Origin: an uncultured Gammaproteobacteria bacterium
Lineage (GTDB): Bacteria; Patescibacteriota; Microgenomatia; Daviesbacterales; UBA10151
Reading direction: 5' to 3'
Assembly: GCA_964392925.1 (NCBI GenBank)
Contig: CAYMRP010000001.1
Span: 51,945-115,944, forward strand
Length of the DNA stretch: 64,000 nt
Below, one piece after another: positions 10,416 to 41,942 of the stretch. The notes below the pieces were generated by a model, which saw only the letters and a list, made by a program, of their open reading frames with translations, had not been told where the DNA came from and did not search any database. Every line of letters begins with the position of its first letter. Position 1 is the first letter of the stretch. Position numbers and translations under genes: made by a program.

Positions 10416-10418
10416 ACT

Positions 10419-15254: not shown

Positions 15255-16205
15255 ATGATCAGTAAAAATAAACCAAATTCTTTCTGGCACAATAAAAAAG
15301 TCCTTCTAACTGGCGGTTCTGGCTTCCTTGGAAGTGTGATAACTAAAAAACTTCGTGAAATGGGCGTAGAACCAATTATTCCTAGATCCAAATCTGAAGA
15401 CTTAAGAATTCAATCTGTAGCGAAAAAAGTTGTTAAAGGTATCGATATCGTAATTCATGCAGCTGGCAATGTTGGCGGTATAGGCTATAATCGTGAACAT
15501 CCTGGAACTCTTTTTTACGACAATTTAATGATGGGAGTTCAATTAATGGAGGAAGCCAGACTTGCAGGAGTAGATAAATTTGTCGCGATAGGCACAATCT
15601 GTGCTTATCCTAAATTTACCCCAATACCTTTTAAAGAAACCGACATTTGGAATGGATACCCAGAAGAAACAAATGCCCCTTATGGACTTGCCAAGAAAAT
15701 GTTATTAGTCCAGTCAGAATCATACCGTCAGGAGTTCGGATTCAATTCAATATTTATTTTGCCTGTTAATCTTTACGGCCCAGGTGATAATTTTGATCCC
15801 GAATCAAGTCACGTTATCCCGGCCCTTATAAAAAAATTCACCGAAGCGGTAAATAATAATGATAAGTCAGTTACTGTTTGGGGTTCTGGAAATGCCACCA
15901 GAGAGTTTCTCTATGTCGATGACTGTGCCGACGGAATCCTAAAAGCAGCCGAACTCTATGACAAATCCGATCCCGTAAATCTTGGGTCTTCTTTTGAAAT
16001 CTCAATTAAAGATTTAGCGAGTTTAATTGCAAAACTCACTAATTTTAACGGAGAAATTATTTGGGATAAATCAAAACCCGATGGCCAGCCCCGAAGAAAA
16101 TTAGATACCGCAAAAGCCGAAGAAGAATTTGGATTTAAATCCAAAGTAAATTTTGAAGAAGGTCTCAGAAAGACTATAGAATGGTATAAGAATACAAAAC
16201 CATAA
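15255..16205 (+). CDS. fcl: GDP-L-fucose synthase (GDP-4-keto-6-deoxy-D-mannose 3,5-epimerase-4-reductase)
   Basis: 316 aa SDR with [12 protein letters not shown], the catalytic YGLAKK and the Fcl-typical ICAYPKF / [14 protein letters not shown] regions. Confidence 0.75.
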
Positions 16206-16220: not shown

Positions 16221-18050
16221 ATGGCATTATCCATAATCCCTAAACTATTACTGCTTATATACGGTTATATTTTTTTATCCACAGAATTTTTCTCCCTTTT
16301 CAATCTGATTTCAAGACAATGGCTATTACCTCTTGATTCTCTTTTTATAATTTTTCTATTCTATTTTTACAGAAATGACATTCAGAATCTATTCAATTCG
16401 ATAAATTTCAAATCTCTGCCCATTCAAATTCTAATATTACTTTTCTCTGTCACTTTTGTTCAGGGATTGTTTAGTGCACCGAGCACTACAGACAGTATGG
16501 TCTATCACATTCCCCGGGTCATGTACTGGATGCAGGAGCAAACTCTCTTTCAAAATGTAATTAGAGGCTCACATGACTTTATGGCACCCTTCGGTGAATA
16601 TATCACGTTGCATCTCTATTTCATTTCGGGCAGCGATAGATTTCTTTTTCTTTCCCAATGGCTAGCATATTTATCTTCTGTAGTTCTTTGCGTTTTAATA
16701 TCCAAAGAATTCTTTGATAAAAAAATCAGGTCTGACTACCTAGCCCTATTCGCCGCCGCGCTTCCAATAGCAGTTCTTCAGTCCTCAAGTACGCAGACTG
16801 ATTTGGTAACTACTGTTATAGTTCTTCTCAGTACCTACTATGCGCTGCGTTTTAGAAAGATGCCTAGTCTCAGAAACTCACTCGCCGTTGGATTATCAAT
16901 TGGTCTTGGAATTTTAACTAAAGCGACATTTGTAATCTTTAGCATAATTCCAATCGCCATTTTAGTTTTAATGATTTGGGAAAACAAAAAAAACTGGAAA
17001 AAAATAATCATCCTTCTGGCAGTTGCAGTACTATTATCCCTAACTCTTCAACTAAGATTTTTTTCTCAAAACCTATCTCTTTTCGGCAGTATATCTGGCC
17101 AACCAATTATTGAAGAGGGGAGTGGTTACACGAATGAACTTTTATCTGGACCAATAATTATCTCAAACTTAATTAGGAATTCTTTTATAAATCTTCCACT
17201 GCCTCTTATTAATATTCCCGTTCAAAGTTTTATATACATATTTCATGATCTAATTAATCTCGACCCAAATGATCCCAAAACTACCTATTCAGGCACGATT
17301 TTTAAAGTTTCCCCCATTATCTATCCTCAAGAGGATATAGTAGCCAGTCCGATACATTTCATTTTGATTCTAGTAGGAGGAGTATATATTTTGTTTAACA
17401 GAAGAAGTTTTAAAGATTCTAAACTGCCTATATTTATCTACACAATTTCAATCGCCTCATTTTTTATCTTCTCATCACTCTTAAAATGGCAGCCCTTCCA
17501 TTCAAGACTGTTAATTCCTTTCCTCTTAATTGGATCTATTAGCTCATACGTAATATTAGCCAAACAGAAATATCTCGAATTGCCTTTAAAAATAGTTGTA
17601 TCTATAAGTGTTATCTTGGCTTTTCTTTTAGCGATTCTAAATGTCTCAAGAAGTTACTTGCCGTATAAAGTATTCATTCAGTACATTAACCATTTCACTC
17701 TGCCTTTGGCTTCTGTCCCGGAGCCATTTTTCCAAAAATCTCGCATTAGTCAATATTTTAATTCCCGGTATTATTGGGAAAAACCATATCGTCAGGTCAT
17801 AGATCAACTAGAAATCAATAATTCCTCACAGGAAATCTCATTTCATCTTATGGATGAATTTGAGTATCCTTTTTGGGTTCTGCTAAAAGATGCGGGCTTA
17901 AATTTCCATATCACACCTCATGCTGACGCATCGGACAACACTATACTAATAACAACATCCAAAGAATCTTTTAAAAAAGATGGCTTTGTTACCAGCTGTT
18001 ATAAAACAGAACTAGAATACGGGTTTGCCTGCATTTCTCAAAAAAGATAA
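16221..18050 (+). CDS. Large polytopic membrane protein (609 aa), possible GT-C glycosyltransferase or polymerase-like protein
   Basis: At least 12 predicted TM segments over the N-terminal ~480 aa, followed by a soluble C-terminal region. No soluble-enzyme motif was seen. Confidence 0.4.
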   Translation: MALSIIPKLLLLIYGYIFLSTEFFSLFNLISRQWLLPLDSLFIIFLFYFYRNDIQNLFNSINFKSLPIQILILLFSVTFVQGLFSAPSTTDSMVYHIPRVMYWMQEQTLFQNVIRGSHDFMAPFGEYITLHLYFISGSDRFLFLSQWLAYLSSVVLCVLISKEFFDKKIRSDYLALFAAALPIAVLQSSSTQTDLVTTVIVLLSTYYALRFRKMPSLRNSLAVGLSIGLGILTKATFVIFSIIPIAILVLMIWENKKNWKKIIILLAVAVLLSLTLQLRFFSQNLSLFGSISGQPIIEEGSGYTNELLSGPIIISNLIRNSFINLPLPLINIPVQSFIYIFHDLINLDPNDPKTTYSGTIFKVSPIIYPQEDIVASPIHFILILVGGVYILFNRRSFKDSKLPIFIYTISIASFFIFSSLLKWQPFHSRLLIPFLLIGSISSYVILAKQKYLELPLKIVVSISVILAFLLAILNVSRSYLPYKVFIQYINHFTLPLASVPEPFFQKSRISQYFNSRYYWEKPYRQVIDQLEINNSSQEISFHLMDEFEYPFWVLLKDAGLNFHITPHADASDNTILITTSKESFKKDGFVTSCYKTELEYGFACISQKR

Positions 18051-18051
18051 C

Positions 18052-18840
18052 TCACTTTATCAGGTATTTTTCCCAAAAACTTCTCTCGTACTTTGCCCAA
18101 GCATGGCAACCAAACGGTATTTGTTTATGATTTAATTCAAAACATTTTCCAGGATATTTTTCGATAGAAAATTTTAAAGCTTCATTAAAAGGTGCAATTT
18201 TAAATTTAGGAGAATACTTAATTGCCTCAAAGGACCAAAACCCATCCTCATTAAAAGGATAATCTTTCGCTGGTGCATTCAGCCATTGACCATGTGTCTT
18301 CCTTTCAAAAAGGGCCTTCAAGAACCAAAATTTACGTATCATTGGGTTGACTGACTGTCTCTTAGCCGATTCCTTCGTAATTTGAATCACTTTAATAAAT
18401 GATGAAACTTTCCTCAATGAAAGTCCGCCATTCCCTCCAGTAAATTTCTCACCCATTTTATGAGTTAACCTACCAATAATTGATTCAAACAAAGGAGCCC
18501 CGATATAATCAAATCCTCGTCCGCACCAGTCGTTTAACTTATCAGAAAATACTAGAGCATCAAGCTGGTATATTAGTACATATTCATATTTACTAAAGCG
18601 CTGATAAAATTCCTCGCTATTCATAAGTTCAGAATACTTACTTAAAGATTGGAAAAAATATGATGGAAAATGTTCAATCTTTAGTCGTGATAAATCCAAA
18701 GTTATGTTAGGAATTGAATCAGGAAGAACTAGATATTTATCATAATTATTTAGATATTTATTCAAATGCTTTACAGAAGTTTTTTCATCCGGTGTTAACT
18801 TCTTTCTGTAGTGGGGGATTATTATTGCAACTTTCTTCAT
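18052..18840 (-). CDS. Hypothetical soluble protein (262 aa), possibly a glycosyltransferase-like or DUF-type enzyme
   Basis: A long ORF that abuts the 3' end of the previous gene on the opposite strand. I recognised no family motif. It has a YQLDALVFSD region. Confidence 0.5.
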   Translation of the reverse strand: MKKVAIIIPHYRKKLTPDEKTSVKHLNKYLNNYDKYLVLPDSIPNITLDLSRLKIEHFPSYFFQSLSKYSELMNSEEFYQRFSKYEYVLIYQLDALVFSDKLNDWCGRGFDYIGAPLFESIIGRLTHKMGEKFTGGNGGLSLRKVSSFIKVIQITKESAKRQSVNPMIRKFWFLKALFERKTHGQWLNAPAKDYPFNEDGFWSFEAIKYSPKFKIAPFNEALKFSIEKYPGKCFELNHKQIPFGCHAWAKYERSFWEKYLIK

Positions 18841-18954
18841 CAGATTTACTTTATACTAAATTCATTTACTAAATTTAGCAATTCCCAAATCTAGAGATGG
18901 TAAATTTCCTAGTTGTAAAAAAAAAGAATTTAATCAAAAATATGCATATCTATA
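18841..18954. promoter_or_regulatory. Divergent intergenic region with an AT-rich near-palindrome (TTACTAAATTTAGCAA); candidate bidirectional promoter/operator
   Basis: This is the only sizeable non-coding gap in the island (114 bp), lying between divergently transcribed genes. The imperfect inverted repeat and the duplicated ACTAAATT were read directly from the sequence. Confidence 0.2.
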
Positions 18955-19674
18955 ATGAGTAAATACATCAAACATCTAACAGACCTATCTAGTAATAAAA
19001 CTTTTGGCAGAAAAAAAGATTATATAGATTATAATCTTGGCAAATATTTTAGAAAAACACCTCTAAGTCATTTAAAGGTTTTAGAAATAGGTCCTGGCTT
19101 CGGCGAATTTGAAAGTTATTTAAATGACAAAAATATCTACAATATCGACATTATTGATAATGATAAAAGTGTATTGGGTCATGTTTCAAAAAACTTCAAA
19201 ATTAAAAACAGTTATCTATCCAGTAATTTTTTGAACATTAAGACGAAATTAGGTCCCTACGACTTTATATTTCTCATGCAGGTCCTAGAACATCTACCAG
19301 TCGATAAACTCGGTCAGGTTGTTAATTTCTTATACAATAATCTAGCTCCAAACGGAGTGCTTATCTTCGTTGTTCCAAACGGTAATAATCCTTTAGGATT
19401 AATTGAAAGATATGCCGACCTCCAACACACTACCTGTTTTACAGAGCAGTCCCTCAAGGATTTAGTCAATCTCTCAAAAATAAAAAACTACAAAATAGAA
19501 ATAACTGGTTATCAAATCCCTCCCTATGATTTAATAAATCTAGTTAGAATAGTCGCCCAAAAAATTCTCCATTTTTTCCTGCTGCTGATCTTGATTATTA
19601 ACGGAGGTGTTTTCTTTAAGACAATGACACCCAATATTATGCTTACGATTAGAAAAAATAACGCCTCAAGATGA
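18955..19674 (+). CDS. Class I SAM-dependent methyltransferase
   Basis: 239 aa. Motif I reads LKVLEIGPGFGEF. It also has a LMQVLEHL region. Confidence 0.65.
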   Translation: MSKYIKHLTDLSSNKTFGRKKDYIDYNLGKYFRKTPLSHLKVLEIGPGFGEFESYLNDKNIYNIDIIDNDKSVLGHVSKNFKIKNSYLSSNFLNIKTKLGPYDFIFLMQVLEHLPVDKLGQVVNFLYNNLAPNGVLIFVVPNGNNPLGLIERYADLQHTTCFTEQSLKDLVNLSKIKNYKIEITGYQIPPYDLINLVRIVAQKILHFFLLLILIINGGVFFKTMTPNIMLTIRKNNASR

Positions 19675-20703
19675 TTAGGTAAGGATATGATCACTTTTAA
19701 ATTCTGTGTACAGCTTTTCTGTTTGTAAAATAATCTTTTTCAGTTCAGCTTTTGTCCTGGTTCTATCCGAACCCCAATACTTTGTGATTAAATTCTTTTG
19801 TTTCTGTGTTATTTTATAATTAAGTTTAGAAAATTCTTCAAGTACCTCTACATAACCTTCAGATTTAAAACCTTCATTTATTCTTTTATTCCAATTCCGG
19901 CTTGTCTTCATTTTTAATTCCTCACTAATTACGATATGAGGCTTGTTCATGTATATACAAAATCCTACATGAGAACTGACAATATTTGAGGCTGTAAGAT
20001 CCGAAATACTAATCAAACTTTTCAGTCTTGGTAAAAATAATGGATCAAGCATATGTCCTGCAGTTACGCACTCGAATCCAAAATCCTGGTAGGTTTTATG
20101 TCTTCCCAGCAGAATATCTTTCCAATAGAGACAAATTCTCACTGTTCGGTCACCTGCAATCTTTTTAATTTTCCTGCATAATTTTTTAATATCGTACTCA
20201 AATCCAATAACTGGAGTCGAATGAGCCGGGAAAAAAAGTAAAGATTCTCCTAAGCGCTTTTTCTCTTTTTCGATTTCCCCATCAGTTAAATAACTCTTCG
20301 CATAATGAATAAATGGTCCAATGCTAAACATATTCGGCCGGTATTCTCTTAGAATTTTTAATCTGTAATCTGAGTAAGTGATAATAGTAGGCAAATCAGC
20401 CTCGACATCAAGATTATCGACTTGATCATTGAGATAAAGTCCGTGTTCGAGTATAAATTTAAATTGATAATTCTTCTCAAGTCCTAAATATGTCTTCAAA
20501 TTACTTGCATGCCCATACCAATCATTTGGTTGATGGATTTCATTCGTAAAAGGAGCAAACATGCTGATCTTTTGTGAAAGCGGAACAATAGATGTCAAAG
20601 GCATTCTCGCTCGTTCGCTAAGACTATTATTATGTATAAAAACCGATAAAGGATTTTTATTTGCAGCGTAAAGTAATTTTTTTACCGGTTTTCTAAAGTT
20701 CAT
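19675..20703 (-). CDS. Hypothetical protein (342 aa)
   Basis: A long ORF with no recognisable motif. Its 3' end abuts the MTase gene on the opposite strand. Confidence 0.5.
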   Translation of the reverse strand: MNFRKPVKKLLYAANKNPLSVFIHNNSLSERARMPLTSIVPLSQKISMFAPFTNEIHQPNDWYGHASNLKTYLGLEKNYQFKFILEHGLYLNDQVDNLDVEADLPTIITYSDYRLKILREYRPNMFSIGPFIHYAKSYLTDGEIEKEKKRLGESLLFFPAHSTPVIGFEYDIKKLCRKIKKIAGDRTVRICLYWKDILLGRHKTYQDFGFECVTAGHMLDPLFLPRLKSLISISDLTASNIVSSHVGFCIYMNKPHIVISEELKMKTSRNWNKRINEGFKSEGYVEVLEEFSKLNYKITQKQKNLITKYWGSDRTRTKAELKKIILQTEKLYTEFKSDHILT

Positions 20704-20705
20704 TT

Positions 20706-21812
20706 TTATATCCTGCTATCTAAAACAGATTTTCGAATTGCATCAAACTCCTTATAATACTTTGAACTAGGAGTATCAATTGGACCTATTAGTCCTTGCT
20801 TGTCTTTTGATAACAAGTACTTAGCGTGAAGCAGAATTAAAGTGTCATATATTATTGTTGGGGCGTTTCTTAAACCGCGGTAAATTTTATTTGTTAGATA
20901 TTCCTGGTTAGAATTCTTTAAGTACGTAACCATTGCCTGATCAATGCACACTTGAGCATCCTTCTTAGATATATCCTCGTGTCTTTGCAAATTATTCACG
21001 ACACTGTCTCTAAATTTTTGGTATTCACTCTCATACTTTCCAGTATTGATCCCATCTTGAAAAGTTGCATAGTTACTAGCCACTCGGGAAAAATATTGCC
21101 GGCCGCCGTAAAAAGTATTCAGATACTTTATCTTTCCAAAAGTAGAAATTAGTATATCTGGTAAAAGTTCTCCAAACATTAAAAGTAAATAAGGATCAAA
21201 TTTTACTTTCTGAAATTCTGCATAACTTTTTTTAACATCACTCGTTCTTCTTACGGCCCATGTTGTTAAATTAAAATTTTCTAAATGATCTTTTACTCTT
21301 CTCGAAGCCTTTGTCTCAGAAATAGTATGATTGCTGTAACGGAAGTTCCACCAAAATTCCCTATAATCAAATAATCCTTTAAAAAGATGAAAGCCTATGT
21401 AGCCGCCGTGGGCTGCACTGTAATCAGGATTCTTCTCAAGAAATCTCACACAATCAAGTATTCCGGTTGGGGTGATAAAGTCATCATCCGGACAGAATAC
21501 TGAATACTTATTATTTAAATATTTAACCATCTGAGAAAATTTAATGTGCTGGGTTAGTTTTGAAGAGAAATTAGTAATGTGTGTGATATTCAGATTGGGG
21601 TAATTATTGATTATCTGTTTATTCTTTTTCTTATTAGTCACGGTGCTTGAATCGGTTACTACAATGTGGCATTTTACTTTTCGATAATTATAAAAACTTA
21701 ATATTCTATTTAGAAAATCTATTCGGTTATGGGTGGGTATTACGATGTCAACGATAGAAGTTAAATCTGTAGCATTATTATTCATATTTATACCGCTCCT
21801 TAAAATACTCAA
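20706..21812 (-). CDS. Family 2 glycosyltransferase
   Basis: 368 aa (VDIVIPTHNRIDFLNRIL ... VVTDSS ... CPDDDF). The start is probably at the internal Met10, which reduces the overlap with the upstream gene. Confidence 0.7.
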   Translation of the reverse strand: MSILRSGINMNNNATDLTSIVDIVIPTHNRIDFLNRILSFYNYRKVKCHIVVTDSSTVTNKKKNKQIINNYPNLNITHITNFSSKLTQHIKFSQMVKYLNNKYSVFCPDDDFITPTGILDCVRFLEKNPDYSAAHGGYIGFHLFKGLFDYREFWWNFRYSNHTISETKASRRVKDHLENFNLTTWAVRRTSDVKKSYAEFQKVKFDPYLLLMFGELLPDILISTFGKIKYLNTFYGGRQYFSRVASNYATFQDGINTGKYESEYQKFRDSVVNNLQRHEDISKKDAQVCIDQAMVTYLKNSNQEYLTNKIYRGLRNAPTIIYDTLILLHAKYLLSKDKQGLIGPIDTPSSKYYKEFDAIRKSVLDSRI

Positions 21813-22752
21813 AATAATTCCTGACTGTTTCCTTCAGTTCAAATTCTGGCTCCCAACCTAACTTTCGCAATTTCTCAGCCGAGAAGCGGAAATAATTTGA
21901 CTTTTCTTCATTTTGAGAAATAATTTTATATTCCTCAGGTTTAAGTTCAGCAGTCTCAAGAAAGACTTTAATCAAACTGGCCACAGTCTCTGGTGAACCT
22001 GAACTTAAATGATAGATCTCTTTATTCTTTCCCCTTTCAACTAGTGCTAATAAAGCCCTAGCTGCATCCCGAACATCTACAATATCTACCTCACCCATTT
22101 TATTCCCAATCTGTATTGTTCTCTTAGTTTCATCATGAACTGCCGATATTACTTCTTTAGCAATAAAGTATTCTACGACACCAGGAATTTTACCCGGTCC
22201 AGTTATTTGTGTAGGCCGGACAATTATATACTCAAGATTATTCTCTGCCGCTAATATTTTCTCCTGTTCAATTCTGCTGGATCTGTAAGGCTGTTCTAGA
22301 GTATCTACCAATGGAAGTTTATCAACTCCCATTTCGGTTACAAAATCCTTTGAAGATAATCTGTCATATACAATACAACCGCTAACCAAAATAAACCGCG
22401 GCAGATTACTTAATGTTTTTACAGCAGATAACGTATTTTTGATAATTGCTGTATTCTCATCGAAGACTTTCTTATTAGTTACATTGCTATCCTGACTTCC
22501 TAAAACTCTTCCTGCTAAATGTATCGCAATATCAGGCTTGAAATCTAAAATAGCCTTTTTAATCTCGTGGGGTTCAATTAAATCTAAGAAGTAGGATTTA
22601 ATAATTCCGTTCTCGCAAAGTTTTTTTATTTCAGATGGTGTAGATGTGTGAAGGGTGCCCCCAACTTCGTAGCCTTCTTCAATGGCTTTGCTTGCCAAGA
22701 ATCTTCCTAGCATTCCACCCATGCCAGTAATAAAAAGTCTCCCTTTACTCAT
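21778..22752 (-). CDS. NAD(P)-dependent epimerase/dehydratase family protein (SDR)
   Basis: 324 aa (LFITGMGGMLGRFL). It sits in the operon with the GDP-heptose genes. Confidence 0.65.
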   Translation of the reverse strand: MSKGRLFITGMGGMLGRFLASKAIEEGYEVGGTLHTSTPSEIKKLCENGIIKSYFLDLIEPHEIKKAILDFKPDIAIHLAGRVLGSQDSNVTNKKVFDENTAIIKNTLSAVKTLSNLPRFILVSGCIVYDRLSSKDFVTEMGVDKLPLVDTLEQPYRSSRIEQEKILAAENNLEYIIVRPTQITGPGKIPGVVEYFIAKEVISAVHDETKRTIQIGNKMGEVDIVDVRDAARALLALVERGKNKEIYHLSSGSPETVASLIKVFLETAELKPEEYKIISQNEEKSNYFRFSAEKLRKLGWEPEFELKETVRNYFEYFKERYKYE

Positions 22753-23969
22753 CAGAGTATTTCTTCAGGATTATTAGGTAAGGGGATAATATATTTTCCC
22801 TGATAGTTATATTGCTTCTTTAAAAATTCAATTATTTCATCTTTAAAATTCCAGGCTAAGATTATTACGGTGTCCGTTTTTCTTCGCATTACTTTTTCAG
22901 CACTTTCAATCAGTATATGAGTTCCTGCTGTATACTTCTCCTGCTTTAACGGATTCTGATCTATAATCACAGAGATTTCTTTAGGACCAATTTGACAATA
23001 GTTAAGAAGCGTTGAACTTCTTGCGGAGGCCCCATACCCAACAACTCGGCCTTTGCTTTTTGATATTAAATCAATTAATAGTTTTTTATGTTCAACAACT
23101 TTTATAGAAAATTCCTGCCAGCTTTTAAGTTCATTAATTTTAATCTTCTCCTCATTATCTCTATACTTTTGGACTATCGGCAATTCTTTAATCTCACCTT
23201 TTCTTGCATAAATTACCAGTGATCCACCACTAATCGGACTAGTCTTGATGTCTTCTATAAACATCCCATTATTATTCAGAAGAGTCTCAAAACTTTTCAC
23301 CGTGAAGTAACATAAATGCTCATGATAGACCGAATCATAATGGAGCTCTTCGTATATTTTTTTAGCATAATGAACTTCCAAAGCCAGCAACCCTTCATCT
23401 TCTAAAACAACCGACATACCTTTTACAAAATCATGCAGGTTGGCAACATGCGGCATAACATTCCGGGCTATAAAAACTTTTGCCGGCCCATACTTCTTTT
23501 TAATTTTACGTGCTTCTTTAGTTCCAAAGAATTCGGCTCTGGTTGGAATTCCTTCTGAATCAGCCTGTTCAGCAATATTTTTTGCCGGGTCAACACCCAA
23601 CACTTTATATCCTTTTTTTAGAAACGGAATTAAGAAGGTCCCATCGTTACTTGCAGCTTCAAGAACATATCCTTTTTTTAAATCCTTAACTTTTGTAATT
23701 ATATTTTTAGCAAAAACTTCTGCATGATTTTTAGCTGTTGAGGATGTCGCAGTCACCCACACATAACTTTTAAATAGTTCTTCGGGGTCTGCGGTGTGAT
23801 TAAGTTGAACCAATGAGCATTTTACGCAAAAACTAAGCGATAGTGGATAAAATTTTTCTTTCTGAGTAGGGGAATCAAGTAGCGAATTAGCTAATGGTTG
23901 TTTTCCTAAGTCTAAAAATTCTACTAATTTTTTACTTTTACATACCCGGCACTGATCAATTCTTTTCAT
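22752..23969 (-). CDS. NDP-sugar C-methyltransferase (TylCIII/NovU-type: N-terminal Zn-ribbon, SAM MTase domain, C-terminal C-methyltransferase domain)
   Basis: 405 aa. The zinc ribbon reads CRVCKSKKL ... CVKCSLVQL, the MTase core reads VLEAASNDGTF and the C-terminal domain is about 150 aa. Domain order and length are typical of this family. Confidence 0.6.
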   Translation of the reverse strand: MKRIDQCRVCKSKKLVEFLDLGKQPLANSLLDSPTQKEKFYPLSLSFCVKCSLVQLNHTADPEELFKSYVWVTATSSTAKNHAEVFAKNIITKVKDLKKGYVLEAASNDGTFLIPFLKKGYKVLGVDPAKNIAEQADSEGIPTRAEFFGTKEARKIKKKYGPAKVFIARNVMPHVANLHDFVKGMSVVLEDEGLLALEVHYAKKIYEELHYDSVYHEHLCYFTVKSFETLLNNNGMFIEDIKTSPISGGSLVIYARKGEIKELPIVQKYRDNEEKIKINELKSWQEFSIKVVEHKKLLIDLISKSKGRVVGYGASARSSTLLNYCQIGPKEISVIIDQNPLKQEKYTAGTHILIESAEKVMRRKTDTVIILAWNFKDEIIEFLKKQYNYQGKYIIPLPNNPEEIL

Positions 23970-24034
23970 TTTAAAAACGAAATCTTTCTATCAAATATAG
24001 AAAAAGTATTTCCTCTTTTTCTTTCAGAAATATA

Positions 24035-25252
24035 TCACTTAGTTAATGAATATACAATCTTCAAGAGATTATTATTTGGATTAACTAAAATGGTTCTAAC
24101 CCCGGCCGCCATCCCTGCCTTTTCGTCTCTTTCGTCATCACCAATAAACACTGACTTTGTTAAATCAAATTGGTTTTCATCAGCTGCCCGATATAAAAGC
24201 CCTGGTTTTGGTTTGCGGCAAACGCACCCCTCATCCCAACCATGGGGACACCAGTAGATTCCTGATATATTCGCTCCAGCATTTTTTAGTTCGCGAAGCA
24301 TTCGCTTATGAATATCCTCTAAATCCTTAGTACTCATCATCCCTCGGGCAATTCCTGCCTGATTAGTAATGATAAAAATCTTATATTTGGCTAAAGTTAA
24401 CAATCTGATTGCTTCGATTGATCCAGTTAGAAATTCAAATTCACTCCATTTCTTTATGTAATCTGCCTTACTAGCTTTTTTATTAATCACCCCGTCCCTA
24501 TCAAGAAAAATAACTTTCTTACTCCTTAAAAATTTCGCAGTTTTCTTAACTCTCTCCATATCTCCGATACTGTAATACTTGTGATTTGTCAAAAATCCCG
24601 CCAGATTTTTCTTCCTAATCAGAGATGGAAAAACAATATCTTCAAATTTACAATTCTCCTTTGGTAAAAGACTTAAAACTTTCTTTTTAACAATCATAAA
24701 ACCGATATCAACGCCGTTCAATTCTTTCTCAGTTCTGGATTTATCATAATTTTTAATAAAACCATTTTGATCAACGAGAGTATTATTCTTAGTCGAATTA
24801 TCTCTATTAGTATAAACAGTTACTAAAGTATCAACCTCTGTTTTTGAAAATAATTGCTGAAGCTTGGCTAAGTTTAGAGGCCAGTAATTATCGCAGTACA
24901 ACAAAAGAAATTGATCTTCGAGTAATTCATGAGCATTCAATATTCTTATTCCACTCTTAATTTCCTCACCGGAATAATCTTTAAATGGGGTGTAGGAATA
25001 CTTTATCTTTATCCCAAAATCCCGGCCATCTTTAAAATGTTTACTAATTTTATCTCCCAAATATCCAGTCAATATAACCACCTCTTTGATACCGTTTAAT
25101 TTTAAAAGATTAAGTAAGTGTTCCAAAAAAGGCTTACCATTTACCAAAATCATTGGCTTGGGATTTTTATTCGTGAACGGTCTTAAGCGGGTACCTGCAC
25201 CGCCAGCAAAAATGACAGCTTGAGTTATTTTTGAAGAATTCAACTTTTCCAA
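24035..25252 (-). CDS. Bifunctional D-glycero-alpha-D-manno-heptose-1-phosphate guanylyltransferase (HddC-like) fused to D-glycero-D-manno-heptose-1,7-bisphosphate phosphatase (GmhB-like)
   Basis: 405 aa. The N-terminal nucleotidyltransferase reads AVIFAGGAGTRLRPFT. The C-terminal HAD-IIIA phosphatase has FLDRDGVIN, the Zn-site CPHGWDEGCVCRKPKPG and GDDERD. Confidence 0.75.
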   Translation of the reverse strand: MEKLNSSKITQAVIFAGGAGTRLRPFTNKNPKPMILVNGKPFLEHLLNLLKLNGIKEVVILTGYLGDKISKHFKDGRDFGIKIKYSYTPFKDYSGEEIKSGIRILNAHELLEDQFLLLYCDNYWPLNLAKLQQLFSKTEVDTLVTVYTNRDNSTKNNTLVDQNGFIKNYDKSRTEKELNGVDIGFMIVKKKVLSLLPKENCKFEDIVFPSLIRKKNLAGFLTNHKYYSIGDMERVKKTAKFLRSKKVIFLDRDGVINKKASKADYIKKWSEFEFLTGSIEAIRLLTLAKYKIFIITNQAGIARGMMSTKDLEDIHKRMLRELKNAGANISGIYWCPHGWDEGCVCRKPKPGLLYRAADENQFDLTKSVFIGDDERDEKAGMAAGVRTILVNPNNNLLKIVYSLTK

Positions 25253-26277
25253 AACAATTTATTGTCCAATCTTTTGTTATCAAGCAGATACTTTAGTCTT
25301 GGCAGCCGGTTACATTTTTGACCCCGGAAATCTTCCTCACTAAGTTCTATTTTCTTGAAAAAGTTCACTAATTCCTTACCGCCTCGATCTAAGTCCCACT
25401 CAGGTTTAAAATAGTCTTTTAGCACTGTAAGTATTTTATTAAAAGATACTTTATAAGTCCTGGCATCCTTACCATGTTCTCCTGTAAAAACTAATTTACT
25501 TCCGGGAACTGCTCTTTGCGCGGCTTCAGCTAAATCTTTTACTGTAAAATTACCATTTGGAATTCCCACATTAAATGATTCGCCCGCGACCAATTCTTTA
25601 GGGGATTCAAGACCCGCAACATAAGCGCTGCAAACATCCCTAACATGCACCACCGGTCTCCATGGAGTTCCGTCACTTTTAATTTCAATTTGTTTAGCCG
25701 TAAATGCACAGGCGACCAAATTATTAAAAACAATATCACATCTTAATTTTGGGCTAACTCCAAAAACGGTCGATGGCCTAAAGCAGACTACAATAAACTC
25801 ATCATTAGCTAATTTTTTAAGTTCCTGTTCAGCTTTCCATTTTGTCTTAGCATATGCTGTGATAGCTTTCTTTTTACTATTGTCCTCATCAAGTTCTTCT
25901 TCAGAATCTGAAACCCCGTACATACTTTGTGATGAAGAGTATATAAATCTTTTAACGCCCGACTTTTTTGCCAGTTTTGCTAATATGATTGTAGCTTTGT
26001 AGTTAATATCTTCCGTTAGAGAAGGATCAAATTCTCCTAGCGGATCATTAGAAAGTGCTGCCAGATGAATTACACTGTCAATTCCCTCTAAATCCGAAAT
26101 ATCAACGTTCCTGATATCTTTGCTAATTTGTTTAACTAATAATTTACCATCATTATCTGGAGAGATTCCTTCGTAGTAACCAGTATCAAGTCCAACAACC
26201 TCATATTTCTTAGAGGCCAAAACTTCAGTCAACACACTTCCTATATATCCTTGATTACCGGTAACGAGAATTCTCAT
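25240..26277 (-). CDS. NAD-dependent epimerase/dehydratase (SDR)
   Basis: The track ORF runs to 26340. I place the start at Met22 (MRILVTGNQGYIGS) because that puts the Rossmann motif at the N-terminus. Confidence 0.65.
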   Translation of the reverse strand: MRILVTGNQGYIGSVLTEVLASKKYEVVGLDTGYYEGISPDNDGKLLVKQISKDIRNVDISDLEGIDSVIHLAALSNDPLGEFDPSLTEDINYKATIILAKLAKKSGVKRFIYSSSQSMYGVSDSEEELDEDNSKKKAITAYAKTKWKAEQELKKLANDEFIVVCFRPSTVFGVSPKLRCDIVFNNLVACAFTAKQIEIKSDGTPWRPVVHVRDVCSAYVAGLESPKELVAGESFNVGIPNGNFTVKDLAEAAQRAVPGSKLVFTGEHGKDARTYKVSFNKILTVLKDYFKPEWDLDRGGKELVNFFKKIELSEEDFRGQKCNRLPRLKYLLDNKRLDNKLFWKS

Positions 26278-26281
26278 ATTT

Positions 26282-26911
26282 CTAAGCCTGTTTCTTCTGT
26301 CGTTTTTTAGCTGAATTACTTTGTTTTTCAATATAATCAAAAGAATTTTTAAAATAAAGAGTCATCATATGCAGTATAACAGAGTGAATTCCTTCGACCA
26401 ATTCATAAGCCCCTTTTTCAGATTTAACTAAAACTTTTGCATCCGCTAGTTTATTTAACATTCCACCATCAAATCCTGTAACTCCAATAACTGATGCTTT
26501 AAACTCAAGCGCTAACTCAACCGCTTTTATAACATTAGGAGAATTACCTGATGAAGAAATTGCGATAATTGTATCTCCTTCGCGGATATAATTTCTTAAC
26601 GGGCCTGCAAAAATCATATCAAACCCCACATCATTAGCCCATGCCGTAATCTCTGATTCCGTTGTAGGCAGTCTGATTGCCTGAAATCGTCTGATGTTCT
26701 TATCTAAGTGACCGCTAAATACAGTTTTATTAAAATCAGCCACCCAATGAGTTGCCATAGCCAGTGATCCTCCGTTCCCAAAAACATAAATTCTGCCATC
26801 CCTCTCATAAGTTGCCTGAAGAATATTTATCGCCTTTGCGATTTCTTTAACCGGCAAATTCTCAATAAGTTTTGTGCTCTTTTTAATATATCCGTTAATA
26901 AATTTATCCAT
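26282..26911 (-). CDS. gmhA: Sedoheptulose-7-phosphate isomerase (SIS domain)
   Basis: 209 aa (YVFGNGGSLAMATHWVADF; ISSSGNSPNV). Confidence 0.75.
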   Translation of the reverse strand: MDKFINGYIKKSTKLIENLPVKEIAKAINILQATYERDGRIYVFGNGGSLAMATHWVADFNKTVFSGHLDKNIRRFQAIRLPTTESEITAWANDVGFDMIFAGPLRNYIREGDTIIAISSSGNSPNVIKAVELALEFKASVIGVTGFDGGMLNKLADAKVLVKSEKGAYELVEGIHSVILHMMTLYFKNSFDYIEKQSNSAKKRQKKQA

Positions 26912-26920
26912 ACGAAGGCC

Positions 26921-27928
26921 TCAATTAAAACAAGTGTTAGAAACAATTTCAACACCGCTGTGGACAAACTTCACAGGTACTTCTTTGAAATCCCTGAGTT
27001 TTAACTCTTCGGCCTTTTTATTTAAAGATTCTCGTACTTGCTCTTTCTTATTTCGGGGGACAAGAAACATTACACATCCGCCGCCGCCAGCTCCTAATAT
27101 TTTTCCACCCCAAGCTCCGTTTTTAATTCCTGTAGCATAAAGTTTATCAATTACCTCATTTGAAATTTTTGATGCCAGTTTCTTTTTAATTAACCAACTT
27201 TCATGTAGTAATTCTCCCATCGCCCGGAAATTTCCTTTAACTAATTTTCTTTGGAATGAATCCACTAACTTTACTAAAGAGTTCAATGATTTTATATTGC
27301 CGGCACTGTTAGCTTTCTGTTCAGTCAGTACGCTTTTTGCAGTTCTGGTTATTCCGGTGAAAAATACCAGCATACTGTTTTCCATATCCAGCCGGGTTTT
27401 ATAATCTAAAAGAATTGGCTCTGTCTCAACACTGCCATCAGGATTGAATGTGAAAGTGTTAAATCCTCCGAGAGCCGCCGCATATTGGTCTTGTTTGCCG
27501 ATCGGTTCTTTTAAAGTTTCAATTTCTATTTCACAGGCAATTTGAGCAATCTCTTTCTTATCAAGCCGTTTACCTGCATAAGTTGATAGACCCTTTATCA
27601 ATGACACAGTAAATGCTGACGATCCTCCAAGTCCAGTTCCAACCGGCATATGTGAGAATATTCCTATTTCTAAATTTTCTTCAACTCCAAACTTAAGCAT
27701 CACCTCTCGAATCCGGTCATTCTTCAAATCTTTAACTTTAGATACTGTCTCAATACTGGAATATCTGGCAGTGATACCTTTTAGTAAGGGAGCCGGGTTA
27801 ATTGCGGCCAAAACATATTTATCTATCGTCGCCGAAATTACTTTTCCAGGTGAATTTTTATAATAATCAGGTAAATCAGTTCCTCCTCCGACAAAACTAA
27901 TTCTCAGCGGTGCTTTAACAATTATCAT
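26921..27928 (-). CDS. hddA: D-glycero-alpha-D-manno-heptose-7-phosphate kinase (GHMP kinase)
   Basis: 335 aa. It has the GHMP ATP motif PVGTGLGGSSA and the N-terminal APLRISFVGGGTDLPDY. Confidence 0.7.
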   Translation of the reverse strand: MIIVKAPLRISFVGGGTDLPDYYKNSPGKVISATIDKYVLAAINPAPLLKGITARYSSIETVSKVKDLKNDRIREVMLKFGVEENLEIGIFSHMPVGTGLGGSSAFTVSLIKGLSTYAGKRLDKKEIAQIACEIEIETLKEPIGKQDQYAAALGGFNTFTFNPDGSVETEPILLDYKTRLDMENSMLVFFTGITRTAKSVLTEQKANSAGNIKSLNSLVKLVDSFQRKLVKGNFRAMGELLHESWLIKKKLASKISNEVIDKLYATGIKNGAWGGKILGAGGGGCVMFLVPRNKKEQVRESLNKKAEELKLRDFKEVPVKFVHSGVEIVSNTCFN

Positions 27929-28938
27929 TACAAATTCTTATAGCCTTTTTTCATAACATAATCAACTGTTCTCTCAAGTCCCTTTTTAATTTTAACTATG
28001 GGTGCCCAACCTAGTAATTCTTTCGCCTTACTAATATCTGCATGAGTAAATTTATTAACCTCATTTGTTAGTAGCTGAGTATTAAATTTATACTTACCCT
28101 CAAATTGCCTTGGAAACTTTTCCCAGTGCATTTTTGGATCTCTAAATATTGGTTTAATTTTCTGCAATTTCAAAATCTCCGCAAGCAAATCGTAAATACC
28201 CTGAACTGAAATAATTTCCCCAGAACCTACATTAAAAGTTTGATTCTTAGATTTAGGATTGGTCATCACAATCTCACATAAACGAACAACATCATCAACA
28301 TAAACAAAATCTCTTGATTGTTTCCCATTTGAATGTAAAATAGGTTTCTCTTTTTTTAACAAACAGCCAATTAAATAACTAATTAAATAAGATGGTGGAC
28401 GGTAATCCATGTGCGGGCCATAAACATTAAAAAACCTAAAAATTGTTATATCCATTCCGTACATTTCTCTAAATGAATCACAAATTCCTTCAGCATCTTT
28501 TTTACTTCTGGCATAAATTAAAGTGGGATTAGCAGGCAAAGATTCCCTAAAAGGAGTATCAGTTTCTTTTTCATAAAGCGCAGCCGTAGATGAGAAAACA
28601 ATTTTCTTTACACCAGCTCTTCTAGCCATCTCCAAAACATTAGCTGTTCCGGCGGTATTAACGCTATACGCCTCTCCTGGATTATCATTACAGCCTGGCA
28701 AAGAAACGTACCCGGCGATATGAAAAACTACATCCACACCTTTCATCACATTCTCAAGTTTCAAATCTCGGATATCCATACAAACAAAATTCTTCAACAG
28801 TCTTTTGCTATCCATAAAATTATAAATATATCCGGAACTTAAATTATCAAGAATAATAACCTCATGATCTTTCTTGTCCAAATATAAAGCTAGTTGTGAC
28901 CCGATAAACCCAGCCCCGCCAGTAATCAAAATACGCAT
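27928..28938 (-). CDS. NAD-dependent epimerase/dehydratase (GalE/WbpP-like SDR)
   Basis: 336 aa (MRILITGGAGFIGSQLALYL). It is the first gene of the minus-strand heptose operon. Confidence 0.65.
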   Translation of the reverse strand: MRILITGGAGFIGSQLALYLDKKDHEVIILDNLSSGYIYNFMDSKRLLKNFVCMDIRDLKLENVMKGVDVVFHIAGYVSLPGCNDNPGEAYSVNTAGTANVLEMARRAGVKKIVFSSTAALYEKETDTPFRESLPANPTLIYARSKKDAEGICDSFREMYGMDITIFRFFNVYGPHMDYRPPSYLISYLIGCLLKKEKPILHSNGKQSRDFVYVDDVVRLCEIVMTNPKSKNQTFNVGSGEIISVQGIYDLLAEILKLQKIKPIFRDPKMHWEKFPRQFEGKYKFNTQLLTNEVNKFTHADISKAKELLGWAPIVKIKKGLERTVDYVMKKGYKNL

Positions 28939-29016
28939 AAGCGACTACAATACTATAGCTGAGCCTATCGCACGTCAACCCTTAATATAGGCGTTATTTT
29001 AATCTATACTTAGTAG

Positions 29017-30114
29017 GTGATTAAGAATTATTTATTCCAAGCAGACCTTGTTAGAGCGCTCGCAATCCTGGCTGTCATCGGCATCCATCTCGTTATCCCC
29101 ATAACCCCCAGACCCGATTATTTTGGAGGTACAATCTGGTGGTTAGCATTTCTTTTAAACTGTCTTTTTAGAATAAGTGTTCCTCTATTTGTAATTCTAA
29201 GCGGCTATTTGGTATTAGGAAAACCCTCATCTATTCATGAAAATTTCAAACGTATTACCCAGCGGATTCTAATCCCATTAATCGCTTATTATATTATCTT
29301 CAATATTATTTATGCTTTAATGGCCTGGTTGAGATTTGAGCCCTATGATTACGCCGGAATTTTTCACAATCTCAGTAAAAACACTCACACCAGCTTATAC
29401 TTTCTTGTTGTCCTATTCTTTATTCAATTTTTAAATCCTCTATGGAATTTATTAACCGAACCAAAAAATGAAAAGGTACTAAAGTATACTTGTTACTTCT
29501 TCCTAGGTTTAGGTGCAGCTTCCTATATTTTTTATTATCTGAGTTTAAGAGAAGGGGAGGTCTTTAGCACATTTACCTATTGGATCATGTGGATAGGCTA
29601 TTATTTATACGGTTATCTGGTTAAATTAAAATCAACTATTCTTTCCAAAGCTGAAACTATCGTTTACTCATTAATATTCATCGCCAGTTTTATTTTTACT
29701 GCTTTTTTTGGCTATTTAACACTCTGGTTGTTTCATAATAACGTTAGTGATCTTTTCTATATTGGCGGACAAACTTATGCAGACTCCTATCTCAGCATCA
29801 GTGTGATGTTGATGTCATTAAGCGCTTTTAATTTACTAATGAGAGGTAGCTGGGTTCAAAAATTAGAAACCATCAGCTGGATAAAAAAACCAATCTCTTT
29901 TATTGCCGTATTGAGTTTTGCTCTCTATCTGAATCATCTTTTAGTTATTGATACGTTAAGTAAATTCTTCGGAATAAATCCCGACAGCCCTTCAATGCCA
30001 AGTCTGGCAATTTATCTAATCATCAGTACTATCCTAACCTTCCTAATAACAATACCTCTGGTATTGCTGATTCAAAAAACGCCTTATCTTAGAAAAATAG
30101 TTGGCCTTAAATGA
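29017..30114 (+). CDS. Acyltransferase family 3 membrane protein (probable glycan O-acetyltransferase)
   Basis: 365 aa with about 10 TM segments. The N-terminus (ADLVRALAILAVIGIHL) is typical of Acyl_transf_3. The start is probably GTG. Confidence 0.6.
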   Translation: MIKNYLFQADLVRALAILAVIGIHLVIPITPRPDYFGGTIWWLAFLLNCLFRISVPLFVILSGYLVLGKPSSIHENFKRITQRILIPLIAYYIIFNIIYALMAWLRFEPYDYAGIFHNLSKNTHTSLYFLVVLFFIQFLNPLWNLLTEPKNEKVLKYTCYFFLGLGAASYIFYYLSLREGEVFSTFTYWIMWIGYYLYGYLVKLKSTILSKAETIVYSLIFIASFIFTAFFGYLTLWLFHNNVSDLFYIGGQTYADSYLSISVMLMSLSAFNLLMRGSWVQKLETISWIKKPISFIAVLSFALYLNHLLVIDTLSKFFGINPDSPSMPSLAIYLIISTILTFLITIPLVLLIQKTPYLRKIVGLK

Positions 30115-31661
30115 AAAATTTTTTAGCAATAATTTTTATTATCGCTGTTGCTCTACGCTTTATTTACTTCCCAGATAACGTCTATTTTGGATACGACCAA
30201 GCTAGAGACGCTTATACTTCGCAAGAAATTATCGCTGGTGATATTATAATCAAAGGTCCTTCTGCTTCGTTTGACTCCAATATCTTTCATGGGGCTCTCA
30301 GCTATTATATTCTCGCCCCTTTGTATTATTTCTCTGGTGGTGATCCAACTCTTTTCTCTGTTGTTCTTAGGTTTTACAATGCTCTTGGAGTCATCCTGGT
30401 TTTCCTTATTGCAGCTTTGCTTTTTAATAGAAAAACTGCTCTTATAGCAGCAACTTTGTATGCAGTCTCCTACGAGCAGACTCAGTATGCCCTGTTCCTA
30501 AGCCACCCTTCATTCGCCGTTCTAACTGTTCTCCTGTTTTACTACGGCTGTGTCAAATACTTTTTTCAAAACAATCTAAAAGGTTTAGTTCTCTCAGCAA
30601 TTGGACTTGGATTATCAATTCAATTCCATTTCTCGCTAATTATTCTTGCCTTTGTTTTCTTAGTTATGTTTATTCTATTTAAAATTCCCTGGAATTTAAT
30701 TTCTACCGCTAATACTAAATTCTTTTCATTAGTAAAGAGTAGATTGCCAGATTATTTAAAGTACGCACTGATTTCAATAATCTGTTTTATACTCACTACT
30801 GCCACTTTCATAATCTCCGAGTATAAATACGGCGATTTTTTGAAAATCCTAACCTCCTCAAATCAGAATTCTTTAATAAACGCTAACAATACTATCGAGA
30901 GCGCCATCTTTCATATAACTACAATTACCCATGATAATCTAAACGCATTTCCGGGTAATTTTGCAGTCATTCTAACTTTAGCGCTGTTATCGACAGCCGC
31001 CCTAATCTACAGGAATAATCACAAGAAACAATTAGTATTTTTACTGATTTGGATTATTGGAGGAATTGTTCCTTATCTATTAAGCTATTCCAAAATTTAT
31101 TACTACGGAATTGGCGGCTCAATCGGTTTATTAGTCCTAACCGCTTTTATCATCGACAGGCTGTTTATAAAGCATCGAATCTTGGCAACCGGCCTTTTGG
31201 TTTTAATCATTAGCTCAAATCTCTATTTAATTATCACCCTCAATCAAACTAAATTTAATCAAAATATGATCGTTCAGGAGGGTTTAGTATTGCCAGTAGA
31301 AAAAGAAGTTTTAGATTTTATCTATCAAAGATCAGAGAATCAGCCATTCTCAGTTAATGCTGTAATGATTCCTTATAATGTTAATACAACTTGGGATTAT
31401 TTATTTAACTGGTATGGCTATAAAAAATATGGTCGTCTTCCTGTCTGGGGTGGGGATGCAGCCCCTGGCTATAAAGGCAAGTTGGAAGTAGTAACATCAA
31501 GAACCAATTTGCCAAAACGAAGATTTTTAATAATTGAACCCTCAAGAAATATTCCTTCATACATGATTTCAGGTCTTATCACAGAAGAGAATTATTTTTC
31601 TAAAGTTATCGAAGAAAAAAGCTTTGGTAATATTACTGTCCAAGTGAGAGATGCTATCTAA
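30111..31661 (+). CDS. Polytopic membrane protein, ArnT-like GT-C glycosyltransferase
   Basis: 516 aa. After TM1 the first-loop acidic motif reads YFGYDQARDAYTSQEI. There are at least 11 TM segments and a C-terminal soluble domain. Confidence 0.55.
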   Translation: MKNFLAIIFIIAVALRFIYFPDNVYFGYDQARDAYTSQEIIAGDIIIKGPSASFDSNIFHGALSYYILAPLYYFSGGDPTLFSVVLRFYNALGVILVFLIAALLFNRKTALIAATLYAVSYEQTQYALFLSHPSFAVLTVLLFYYGCVKYFFQNNLKGLVLSAIGLGLSIQFHFSLIILAFVFLVMFILFKIPWNLISTANTKFFSLVKSRLPDYLKYALISIICFILTTATFIISEYKYGDFLKILTSSNQNSLINANNTIESAIFHITTITHDNLNAFPGNFAVILTLALLSTAALIYRNNHKKQLVFLLIWIIGGIVPYLLSYSKIYYYGIGGSIGLLVLTAFIIDRLFIKHRILATGLLVLIISSNLYLIITLNQTKFNQNMIVQEGLVLPVEKEVLDFIYQRSENQPFSVNAVMIPYNVNTTWDYLFNWYGYKKYGRLPVWGGDAAPGYKGKLEVVTSRTNLPKRRFLIIEPSRNIPSYMISGLITEENYFSKVIEEKSFGNITVQVRDAI

Positions 31662-38813: not shown

Positions 38814-38816
38814 AAT

Positions 38817-39968: not shown

Positions 39969-39980
39969 GTTGTGAAAATA

Positions 39981-41878: not shown

Positions 41879-41942
41879 ACAATATTGATAGTTCTAACAT
41901 GTTTAGATTTTCAGTTCAATATGAAAGTGTATAATCTCCCTA

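Follow-up and report, generated by a model that had tools for sequence, protein, structure and literature searches.

A compact block of nine co-directional genes lies on the minus strand of the 64,000-nucleotide (nt) stretch of contig CAYMRP010000001.1 analysed here (hereafter the window), and it combines homologs of the enzymes that activate heptose with a sugar C-methyltransferase of the TylC3/TcaB9 family. In the direction of transcription the genes specify an extended short-chain dehydrogenase/reductase (SDR1), a GHMP kinase, a SIS isomerase, a second SDR (SDR2), a nucleotidyltransferase/phosphatase fusion, the C-methyltransferase, a third SDR (SDR3), a glycosyltransferase and a 342-residue protein (Table 1), with junctions of −1, 9, 4, −13, 65, −1, −8 and 2 nt. 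The presence, coordinates and strand of the open reading frame (ORF) were checked for every listed gene. All ORFs named in a preliminary description of this DNA were recovered at the claimed positions and on the claimed strand with the claimed domains, at scores far beyond chance; the operon itself had been drawn too short, because the co-directional block reaches one gene further, to the 342-residue protein.

Four predicted core activities of heptose activation are encoded by the isomerase, kinase and fusion genes. The top NCBIfam models for the SIS protein are phosphoheptose isomerases (TIGR00441/PRK13936; 95.8 bits against a cut-off of 209 and 100.3 against 276), and its twelve best matches in the Protein Data Bank (PDB) are all phosphoheptose isomerases, led by 1tk9 (E = 3.4e-24). 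For the kinase the top model is HddA (NF049969; 180 bits, cut-off 600), with fucokinase as runner-up at 100 bits; the motifs PVGTGLGGSSA and GAGGGG are present, and the best PDB matches (E about 1e-40) are 3k85 and 4n3o, which carry heptose kinase or heptose-pathway names, together with 4usk/4usm ('putative sugar kinase'), which we take to be WcbL. The fusion protein joins a nucleotidyltransferase (residues about 10-240) to a GmhB-type 7-phosphatase (about 244-395) and contains the motifs GGAGTRLRP, DRDGV, CPHGWDEGCVCRKPKPG and GDDERD; its PDB relatives include the GmhB entries 4pnh and 2gmw. Its HAD domain, with a DxDG motif and a CPHx6CxC zinc loop, narrowly misses the GmhB models (PRK08942, 168.1 bits against 178; TIGR00213, 128.9 against 149.6) and passes the HAD-IIIA (105 against 44.6) and histidinol-phosphatase-type (130 against 84) cut-offs. 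Three of its four best solved relatives are named D,D-heptose 1,7-bisphosphate phosphatase and the fourth (3l8h) is a 'putative haloacid dehalogenase-like hydrolase'. In the nucleotidyltransferase domain only the generic GGxGTRL fold signature was seen, and it scored 93.9 bits against a ManC-type model, 91.2 against MurU, 83.3 against archaeal GlmU and 79.6 against HddC (NF049965, cut-off 300). The heptose-specific cut-offs used here are set at equivalog or GmhB-subfamily level.

Judging from protein similarity, the operon very likely encodes an alpha-route pathway to a heptose nucleotide. The kinase, isomerase and phosphatase, described beforehand as heptose enzymes, do find their best NCBIfam and PDB matches among such enzymes, at scores below the HddA, GmhA and GmhB cut-offs. 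The HddC-GmhB fusion stands as regards its two domains and its GmhB-type part; the HddC part does not, being outscored by the ManC-type and MurU models. Likewise, the complete GDP-heptose pathway that had been claimed holds in that all four activities lie in one operon, and its GDP moiety is something we infer. Because the ManC-type, MurU, GlmU and HddC models score alike and far below cut-off, hidden Markov model scores do not discriminate between nucleotides, and since the domain cannot be assigned to HddC, the case for a guanine nucleotide comes solely from the kinship of SDR2 and SDR3 with GDP-sugar enzymes.

SDR2 most closely matches the PDB entries 6vo6/6vo8 (128.2 bits, E = 3.3e-36; next match 80 bits), which we take to be Cj1427, the NAD-dependent GDP-heptose C4-dehydrogenase of Campylobacter jejuni. 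Its motifs SSSQSMYG and YAKTK align to NTNSGYG and YGIDK of 6vo6; the Ser/Tyr/Lys triad is present and the Asp/Glu pair typical of 4,6-dehydratases is not. A function as 4,6-dehydratase was considered and rejected, given that no acid pair follows the catalytic Ser and that 8v4g ('putative nucleotide sugar dehydratase') matches at 4e-12 versus 3e-36 for 6VO6. We therefore propose from sequence similarity that SDR2 is a Cj1427-like NDP-heptose C4-dehydrogenase that would yield a 4-keto sugar. The Cj1427-type enzyme releases a free 4-keto product, its cofactor being recycled by alpha-ketoglutarate (PMC10680097).

The methyltransferase has the N-terminal zinc domain PF08421, a class I S-adenosylmethionine (SAM) domain and the C-terminal domain PF08484, all above cut-off. 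Its C-terminal C-methyltransferase domain is clearly present (140.2 bits), as the TylCIII-type assignment of the preliminary description demanded. Full-length PDB matches were obtained with 4rv9 (D-mycarose 3-C-methyltransferase, 2.2e-63; the enzyme is presumably MtmC), 5t6b (sugar 3-C-methyltransferase, 5.8e-56) and TcaB9 (1.1e-51), and identity to the 4rv9 enzyme is ~31%. Cys7, Cys10, Cys48, Cys51 and the YHEH motif (215-218), to which we assign zinc-binding and active-site roles by analogy with TcaB9, align with 4rv9 and are kept in 27 of the 29 other aligned sequences, the exceptions being a split ORF (locus L056 of the comparison below) and a weak second copy in L015, which reads CHEH. 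C-methyl-branched sugars had been described as rare in surface glycans and best known from antibiotic pathways; the methyltransferase family, with more than 7500 homologs (E ≤ 1e-30), is not rare in environmental genomes. C-methyltransferases of the TylC3/TcaB9 type need a 4-keto sugar nucleotide as substrate, and SDR2 would supply exactly that type of compound. No hexose-1-phosphate nucleotidyltransferase or 4,6-dehydratase was detected among the scanned window ORFs (all of at least 150 residues, plus 14110-14472), so that no competing origin of a 4-keto sugar came to light among them.

Related loci, at least 80 from different species (one genome per species), were found via the fusion protein and then by local searches with window proteins; features were counted within 10 kb over 80 listed loci, designated here by L numbers. 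Homologs of the fusion protein number more than 5000 (E ≤ 1e-20). The best among the listed loci belongs to a Daviesbacteria metagenome-assembled genome (MAG), at 59%, and the list spans candidate-phyla bacteria, archaea, Chloroflexi, Acidobacteria, Nitrospira, Verrucomicrobia, Desulfobacter, Magnetospirillum sp. SS-4, Mesorhizobium and Bradyrhizobium. The GHMP kinase occurs in 67 of the 80, the SIS protein in 49 and a Cj1427-like SDR in 47. A C-methyltransferase is present in 23, accompanied in 19 by the Cj1427-like SDR and lying in 13 less than 100 nt from the nearest heptose gene. Two deep clades can be distinguished among the heptose-linked methyltransferases: identity to the window enzyme is 50-100% in one and 32-34% in the other, which lies nearer to 4rv9. 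Where the methyltransferase is 99, 79 or 74% identical, the order kinase-SIS-SDR2-fusion-methyltransferase-SDR3-transferase-342-residue gene-DUF5672 is kept. Four more window-type methyltransferases (59-62% identical), from Parcubacteria, a Thermoplasmatales archaeon, a Hodarchaeales archaeon and a JGI metagenome, all adjoin fusion, kinase and SIS genes. The order kinase-SIS-SDR2-fusion-methyltransferase is found in three of these four; the Parcubacteria locus instead reads methyltransferase-fusion-kinase-SIS, with two untyped SDR genes upstream. That adjacency to heptose genes recurs in both clades, and in bacteria and archaea alike, is our main argument that the methyltransferase acts on heptose. 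Among the second-clade loci, L039 (Magnetospirillum sp. SS-4, NZ_CACVCH010000013.1, 9911-14393) has the order fusion-kinase-SDR-C-methyltransferase in a record not labelled as a MAG.

The same comparison bears on SDR2. An RmlC-like cupin occurs in 52 of the 80 listed loci, usually as the gene that directly follows the Cj1427-like SDR or the methyltransferase. Since the substrates of RmlC-like epimerases are 4-keto sugars, the linkage of SDR2-type genes to such cupins independently supports the dehydrogenase assignment. In a Nitrospiraceae MAG (L023, 11273-12778), the Cj1427-like SDR and the RmlC-like (dTDP_sugar_isom) cupin form a single protein of 501 residues. No RmlC-like ORF was detected in the window (E ≤ 10) or in L001-L005. 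Unlike most related cassettes, the lineage of the window lacks a C3/C5 epimerase of this kind, which would leave the ring configuration to the methyltransferase and the reductase alone.

SDR3, the candidate reductase, has a 1-nt overlap with the stop of the methyltransferase gene. Its best PDB match is 2pk3 (GDP-6-deoxy-D-lyxo-4-hexulose reductase, Rmd; 8.2e-20), 6x3b also matches, and at E ≤ 1e-5 nothing was retrieved besides Rmd-, GalE- and dehydratase-type entries. On this basis SDR3 is proposed to be an Rmd-like C4-ketoreductase. The downstream glycosyltransferase overlaps SDR3 by 8 nt. It had been described as a GT2 transferase; the gene is there, the GT2 match is weak (25.9 bits) and the TIGR04440 domain is clear (about 160.6 bits, cut-off 70). 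Homologs of it lie near heptose cassettes in L006, L014, L016, L019, L064 and L073, and it is a candidate transferase for the modified heptose. In L003/L004 (11218-13257), where the methyltransferase is 79% identical, SDR3 and the TIGR04440 transferase form one protein of 679 residues, which ties the reductase to the transfer step. The 342-residue protein belongs to a small family whose named members are Daviesbacteria, a hint that the DNA comes from a candidate-phyla bacterium of Microgenomates type, and the DUF5672 gene keeps its position in L002, L003, L005 and L006.

Taken together, the operon would probably make a nucleotide-activated heptose, C-methylate it and pass the product to the transferases encoded directly downstream, all pathway steps being read from homology and synteny. 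According to this model, the SIS isomerase would convert sedoheptulose-7-phosphate to D-glycero-D-manno-heptose-7-phosphate, the GHMP kinase would phosphorylate O1 to give the alpha-1,7-bisphosphate, and the HAD domain of the fusion protein would remove the 7-phosphate to leave heptose-1-phosphate, from which the nucleotidyltransferase domain would form a nucleoside diphosphate (NDP)-heptose, GDP being the likeliest nucleotide. SDR2 would then oxidise C4 to a free 4-keto-heptose nucleotide, and the TylC3/TcaB9-type enzyme would deprotonate a carbon adjacent to the ketone and add the methyl group of SAM. By analogy with its relatives the methylation site is most likely C3; C5 is possible. Finally, the Rmd-like SDR3 would reduce C4 and the TIGR04440 transferase would use the resulting NDP-C-methyl-heptose, possibly joined by the TagF-like and DUF5672 proteins.

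Several observations weigh against this model. All four core activities miss the heptose-specific NCBIfam cut-offs, and the nucleotidyltransferase domain shows no specific likeness to HddC. Where aligned GmhA chains (1tk9, 5i01) carry the active-site Glu of the 'AAEL/AAEM' motif, the GmhA-like protein has Asp, directly followed by a 5-residue insertion. The equation of 6VO6 with Cj1427 is our own, the PDB title being only 'putative sugar-nucleotide epimerase/dehydratase', and similarity to it is modest (128 bits), so that a net oxidation releasing the keto sugar is extrapolated. In SDR3, YRSSR stands where 2pk3 has YGVSK and 4lw8/6x3b have YAVSK, placing Arg at the position of the catalytic Lys; the Arg is kept in orthologs at 52-54% identity, and for this reason the protein is termed Rmd-like and not filed as Rmd. 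All characterised members of the methyltransferase family known to us act on dTDP-deoxyhexoses. A literature search that did not reach most subscription journals, and so does not prove absence, found neither a report of C-methyl-heptose in any glycan nor literature linking C-methylation with heptose.

The same pathway might instead produce a CDP-, UDP- or dTDP-heptose, an alternative that we consider possible if doubtful. Besides MurU, itself a uridylyltransferase, the nucleotidyltransferase domain also matches AglF (uridylyl, 78.3 bits) and glucose-1-phosphate cytidylyltransferase (70.2 bits), all far below cut-off, and its best PDB match is a UTP-glucose-1-phosphate uridylyltransferase. In archaea a P-loop domain of the uridine-kinase/phosphoribulokinase family is fused to the fusion protein (L087, 5157-6995) or encoded beside it (L088, 6357-6935); these domains score 65 and 50 bits against uridine kinase (cut-off 180), and they could have a bearing on nucleotide choice. 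Solved relatives of the methyltransferase also act on dTDP-sugars. However, the best solved relatives of SDR2 (6VO6, presumably Cj1427) and of SDR3 (Rmd, 2pk3/6x3b) are GDP-sugar enzymes. Moreover, the GHMP-kinase alpha-route heptose pathways known so far end in GDP-heptose (PMC10680097). From these relationships, GDP is most likely the nucleotide of the predicted sugar.

It is unlikely that SDR2 is an ordinary epimerase that releases no keto sugar, with the methyltransferase obtaining its substrate in some other way, or that the methyltransferase or SDR3 serves some other function, for example a combined methylation and reduction. The limited similarity of SDR2 to 6VO6 and the missing canonical Lys of SDR3 would fit such a reading, as would several Rhizobiales-type loci in which no reductase was detected, with a limited query set, among the SIS, fusion, SDR2, cupin and kinase genes. 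In addition, among solved structures the methyltransferase is nearest to an enzyme of S. argillaceus for which 4-ketoreductase activity has been reported (PMC3539893). Against this, the tight link of SDR2 to RmlC-like cupins, up to the fusion in L023, and its association with C-methyltransferases both argue for a free 4-keto product.

The C-methyltransferase could also act on another NDP-4-keto sugar, a hexose made elsewhere, and merely sit among heptose genes. The window is a 64-kb glycan island rich in other sugar genes, the characterised family members known to us use 6-deoxyhexoses, and L005 carries a second, classical C-methyltransferase that adjoins FdtA and an SDR. We nevertheless regard this as quite improbable, since the gene is flanked closely by the fusion gene and SDR3 (junctions of 65 nt and −1 nt), its adjacency to heptose genes recurs in both deep clades and in many phyla, archaea included, and neither a 4,6-dehydratase nor a hexose-1-phosphate nucleotidyltransferase was detected among the scanned window ORFs. 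A non-heptose sugar phosphate as substrate of the four core activities is very improbable, for despite the missed cut-offs and the Asp and insertion of the SIS protein, the isomerase, kinase and phosphatase match heptose enzymes clearly better than any others in NCBIfam as well as PDB, the combination of the four marks the alpha-heptose route, and split transketolase genes downstream in one relative are consistent with a supply of sedoheptulose-7-phosphate.

A heptose modified through a 4-keto intermediate has a precedent. The capsular heptose pathways of C. jejuni use GmhA, HddA, GmhB and HddC, the C4-dehydrogenase Cj1427, a Cj1430-type C3/C5 epimerase and a Cj1428-type C4-reductase (PMC10680097), and they share with the predicted pathway the alpha-route via a GHMP kinase and the sequence of oxidising C4, modifying the sugar and reducing C4 (PMC10680097). 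The arrangement of Cj1427 with Cj1430 is mirrored by the pairing of SDR2 with RmlC-like cupins in most related cassettes. The window operon differs by the addition of a TylC3-type C-methyltransferase, none being described in the C. jejuni pathways (PMC10680097), by the fusion of phosphatase and nucleotidyltransferase, the lack of an epimerase and an Rmd-like reductase with a YxxxR motif, and by the divergence of its proteins, which fall below the heptose-specific cut-offs.

The C-methyltransferase resembles the antibiotic C-3-methyltransferases TylC3, TcaB9, KijD1 and MtmC in its three-domain architecture, zinc cysteines and YHEH motif (E values from 1e-51 to 2e-63). Those enzymes act on dTDP-2,6-dideoxy or 3-amino sugars, whereas the substrate in the window is predicted to be a 4-keto-heptose nucleotide, probably GDP-linked, that retains its 2-, 3- and 6-hydroxyls, and the genomic setting is a surface-glycan island rather than a natural-product cluster. 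Another parallel is the proposed virenose pathway of Coxiella burnetii lipopolysaccharide, assembled in silico from GDP-mannose, GMD, the TylCIII-like CBU_0691 and a reductase (PMC3539893); here too a TylCIII-like enzyme is assigned to a GDP-4-keto sugar in a surface-glycan pathway, ahead of an Rmd/GMER-type reduction (PMC3539893). Virenose is, however, a hexose whose keto group comes from a 4,6-dehydratase and whose product is 6-deoxy, whereas in the window the sugar would be a heptose, the keto group would come from a C4-dehydrogenase and no deoxygenation is expected. Heptose and C-methylation are combined in none of these three systems.

Two gene starts were revised. The transferase more likely begins at the ATG at 21785, preceded by AAGGAG, which gives the 359 residues found in gene calls of relatives. 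For SDR2 the mechanical ORF extends to a TTG at 26340, and the ATG at 26277 matches the 345-residue gene calls of relatives. Promoter-like sites in 17800-30300 numbered 36 against 48.6 in shuffled sequence and terminators in the same interval were at chance level, both being uninformative on transcription units, and Rfam and tRNA scans of the window gave no matches and hence no marker for taxonomy.

Table 1. Genes of the conserved block, the divergent neighbour and island ORFs without a Pfam match, in window coordinates.
Feature	Coordinates	Strand	Domain or best match
SDR1, GalE-like extended SDR	27928-28938	minus	Epimerase 193.6 bits
HddA-like GHMP kinase	26921-27928	minus	GHMP_kinases_N + GHMP_kinases_C
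GmhA-like SIS isomerase	26282-26911	minus	SIS_2 65.7 bits / SIS
SDR2, Cj1427-like extended SDR (proposed)	25240-26277	minus	top PDB match 6vo6/6vo8
Nucleotidyltransferase/phosphatase fusion	24035-25252	minus	NTP_transferase 67.2 bits (residues 12-156) + HAD-IIIA/GmhB-type domain (residues 244-392)
TylC3/TcaB9-family NDP-sugar C-methyltransferase	22752-23969	minus	Methyltransf_13 76.9, Methyltransf_23 51.2, Methyltransf_14 140.2 bits
SDR3, Rmd-like extended SDR	21778-22752	minus	top PDB match 2pk3
TIGR04440-type (GT-A) glycosyltransferase	20706-21785 (listed ORF to 21812)	minus	TIGR04440 about 160.6 bits, cut-off 70
Conserved 342-residue protein	19675-20703	minus	predicted GT-B/TagF-like fold; no family match
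DUF5672 protein, closes conserved block	18052-18840	minus	PF18922 181.6 bits
Acyltransferase-3 membrane protein, divergent	29017-30114	plus	Acyl_transf_3 PF01757 87.7 bits
ORF without Pfam match	12303-13457
ORF without Pfam match	31654-33201
ORF without Pfam match	35144-36433
ORF without Pfam match	45791-46672
ORF without Pfam match	48594-49202
ORF without Pfam match	50987-53134
ORF without Pfam match	58609-60324
ORF without Pfam match	60406-62049
ORF without Pfam match	62046-63185

The remaining genes of the block are tied to the heptose to differing degrees. Three tailoring SDRs had been described; three are present, and their roles are not equivalent, comprising a Cj1427-like dehydrogenase, an Rmd-like reductase with YxxxR and the GalE-like SDR1. 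SDR1 scores 148.4 bits against the GalE model TIGR01179 (cut-off 262.3) and 127.6 bits against heptose 6-epimerase, also below cut-off; its best PDB matches are 6dnt and 4zrm, and the motifs SSTAALY and YARSK are present. Within the window the end of SDR1 and the start of the kinase gene share 1 nt. In relatives, a gene of 231-251 residues on the opposite strand intervenes between SDR1 and kinase (L002 5283-5978, L003 5343-6038, L005 5309-6064), which is not found in the window and which weakens the membership of SDR1 in the operon; the copy in L005 has a faint DUF218 match. SDR1 is not dismissed as unrelated, because homologs of its type lie inside heptose cassettes without SDR2 in five other loci (L026, L030, L042, L065, L068). 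The acyltransferase-3 gene, found where the preliminary description had placed it (29017-30114, plus strand; 87.7 bits), is kept beside the SDR1-type gene in L002 (96%) and L003 (82%); its product may O-acetylate some residue of the final glycan, and nothing ties it to the heptose. Convergent with the operon, a class I SAM methyltransferase of 239 residues (18955-19674, plus strand), which together with DUF5672 also closes the block in L002 and L006 (Daviesbacteria), could O-methylate the glycan.

The surrounding island contains further genes for glycan assembly. Six tandem paralogous ORFs of 541-582 residues (483-10415, plus strand) all encode PMT_2/PMT proteins (glycosyltransferase GT-C fold, ArnT/PMT-like), and two further PMT_2 proteins lie at 16221-18050 and 30111-31661 (plus strand); this array suggests many different transfers of lipid-linked sugars to surface acceptors. 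A GT2-DUF2304-GT2 trio (13445-15253, plus strand) stands beside an SDR gene (15255-16205) and the PMT_2/DUF2142 GT-C protein at 16221-18050, and is kept in L002 and L003. A nonulosonic-acid-type gene set spans 36440-45386, with a HisH-like amidotransferase, a HisF-like cyclase, an SDR, a UDP-GlcNAc 2-epimerase-like protein and a methyltransferase, as well as NeuB, a GFO/IDH/MocA oxidoreductase, a CTP_transf_3 and adh_short fusion of 507 residues and a PseB/CapD-like dehydratase. A Wzx-type flippase (47109-48593, plus strand) and an ABC-2 transporter pair with overlapping ATPase and permease ORFs (53141-54656, minus strand) mean that two export routes are present in one island. Nine island ORFs of 202-715 residues gave no Pfam match.

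The proposed mechanism is not exotic; the predicted sugar is one for which no report was found, and related cassettes are widespread. We consider it about an even call that a nucleotide-activated C-methyl-branched heptose, a branched sugar with eight carbons, commonly serves as a building block for cell-surface glycans and is made by a conserved cassette of isomerase, kinase, phosphatase-nucleotidyltransferase, C4-dehydrogenase and C-methyltransferase in candidate-phyla bacteria, Thermoplasmatales, Asgard archaea (Hodarchaeales), Acidobacteria, Nitrospira, Chloroflexi, Verrucomicrobia and Magnetospirillum. If the model is correct, C-methyl-heptose would be a new sugar class in the bacterial and archaeal glycome, and the substrate range of TylC3/TcaB9-type enzymes would widen from antibiotic deoxyhexoses to the heptose nucleotides of surface glycans. 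It would also provide a function for a gene labelled only 'class I SAM-dependent methyltransferase' in many uncultivated lineages, and the Cj1427-type 4-keto-heptose hub, worked out so far only in Campylobacter, would prove to be widespread.

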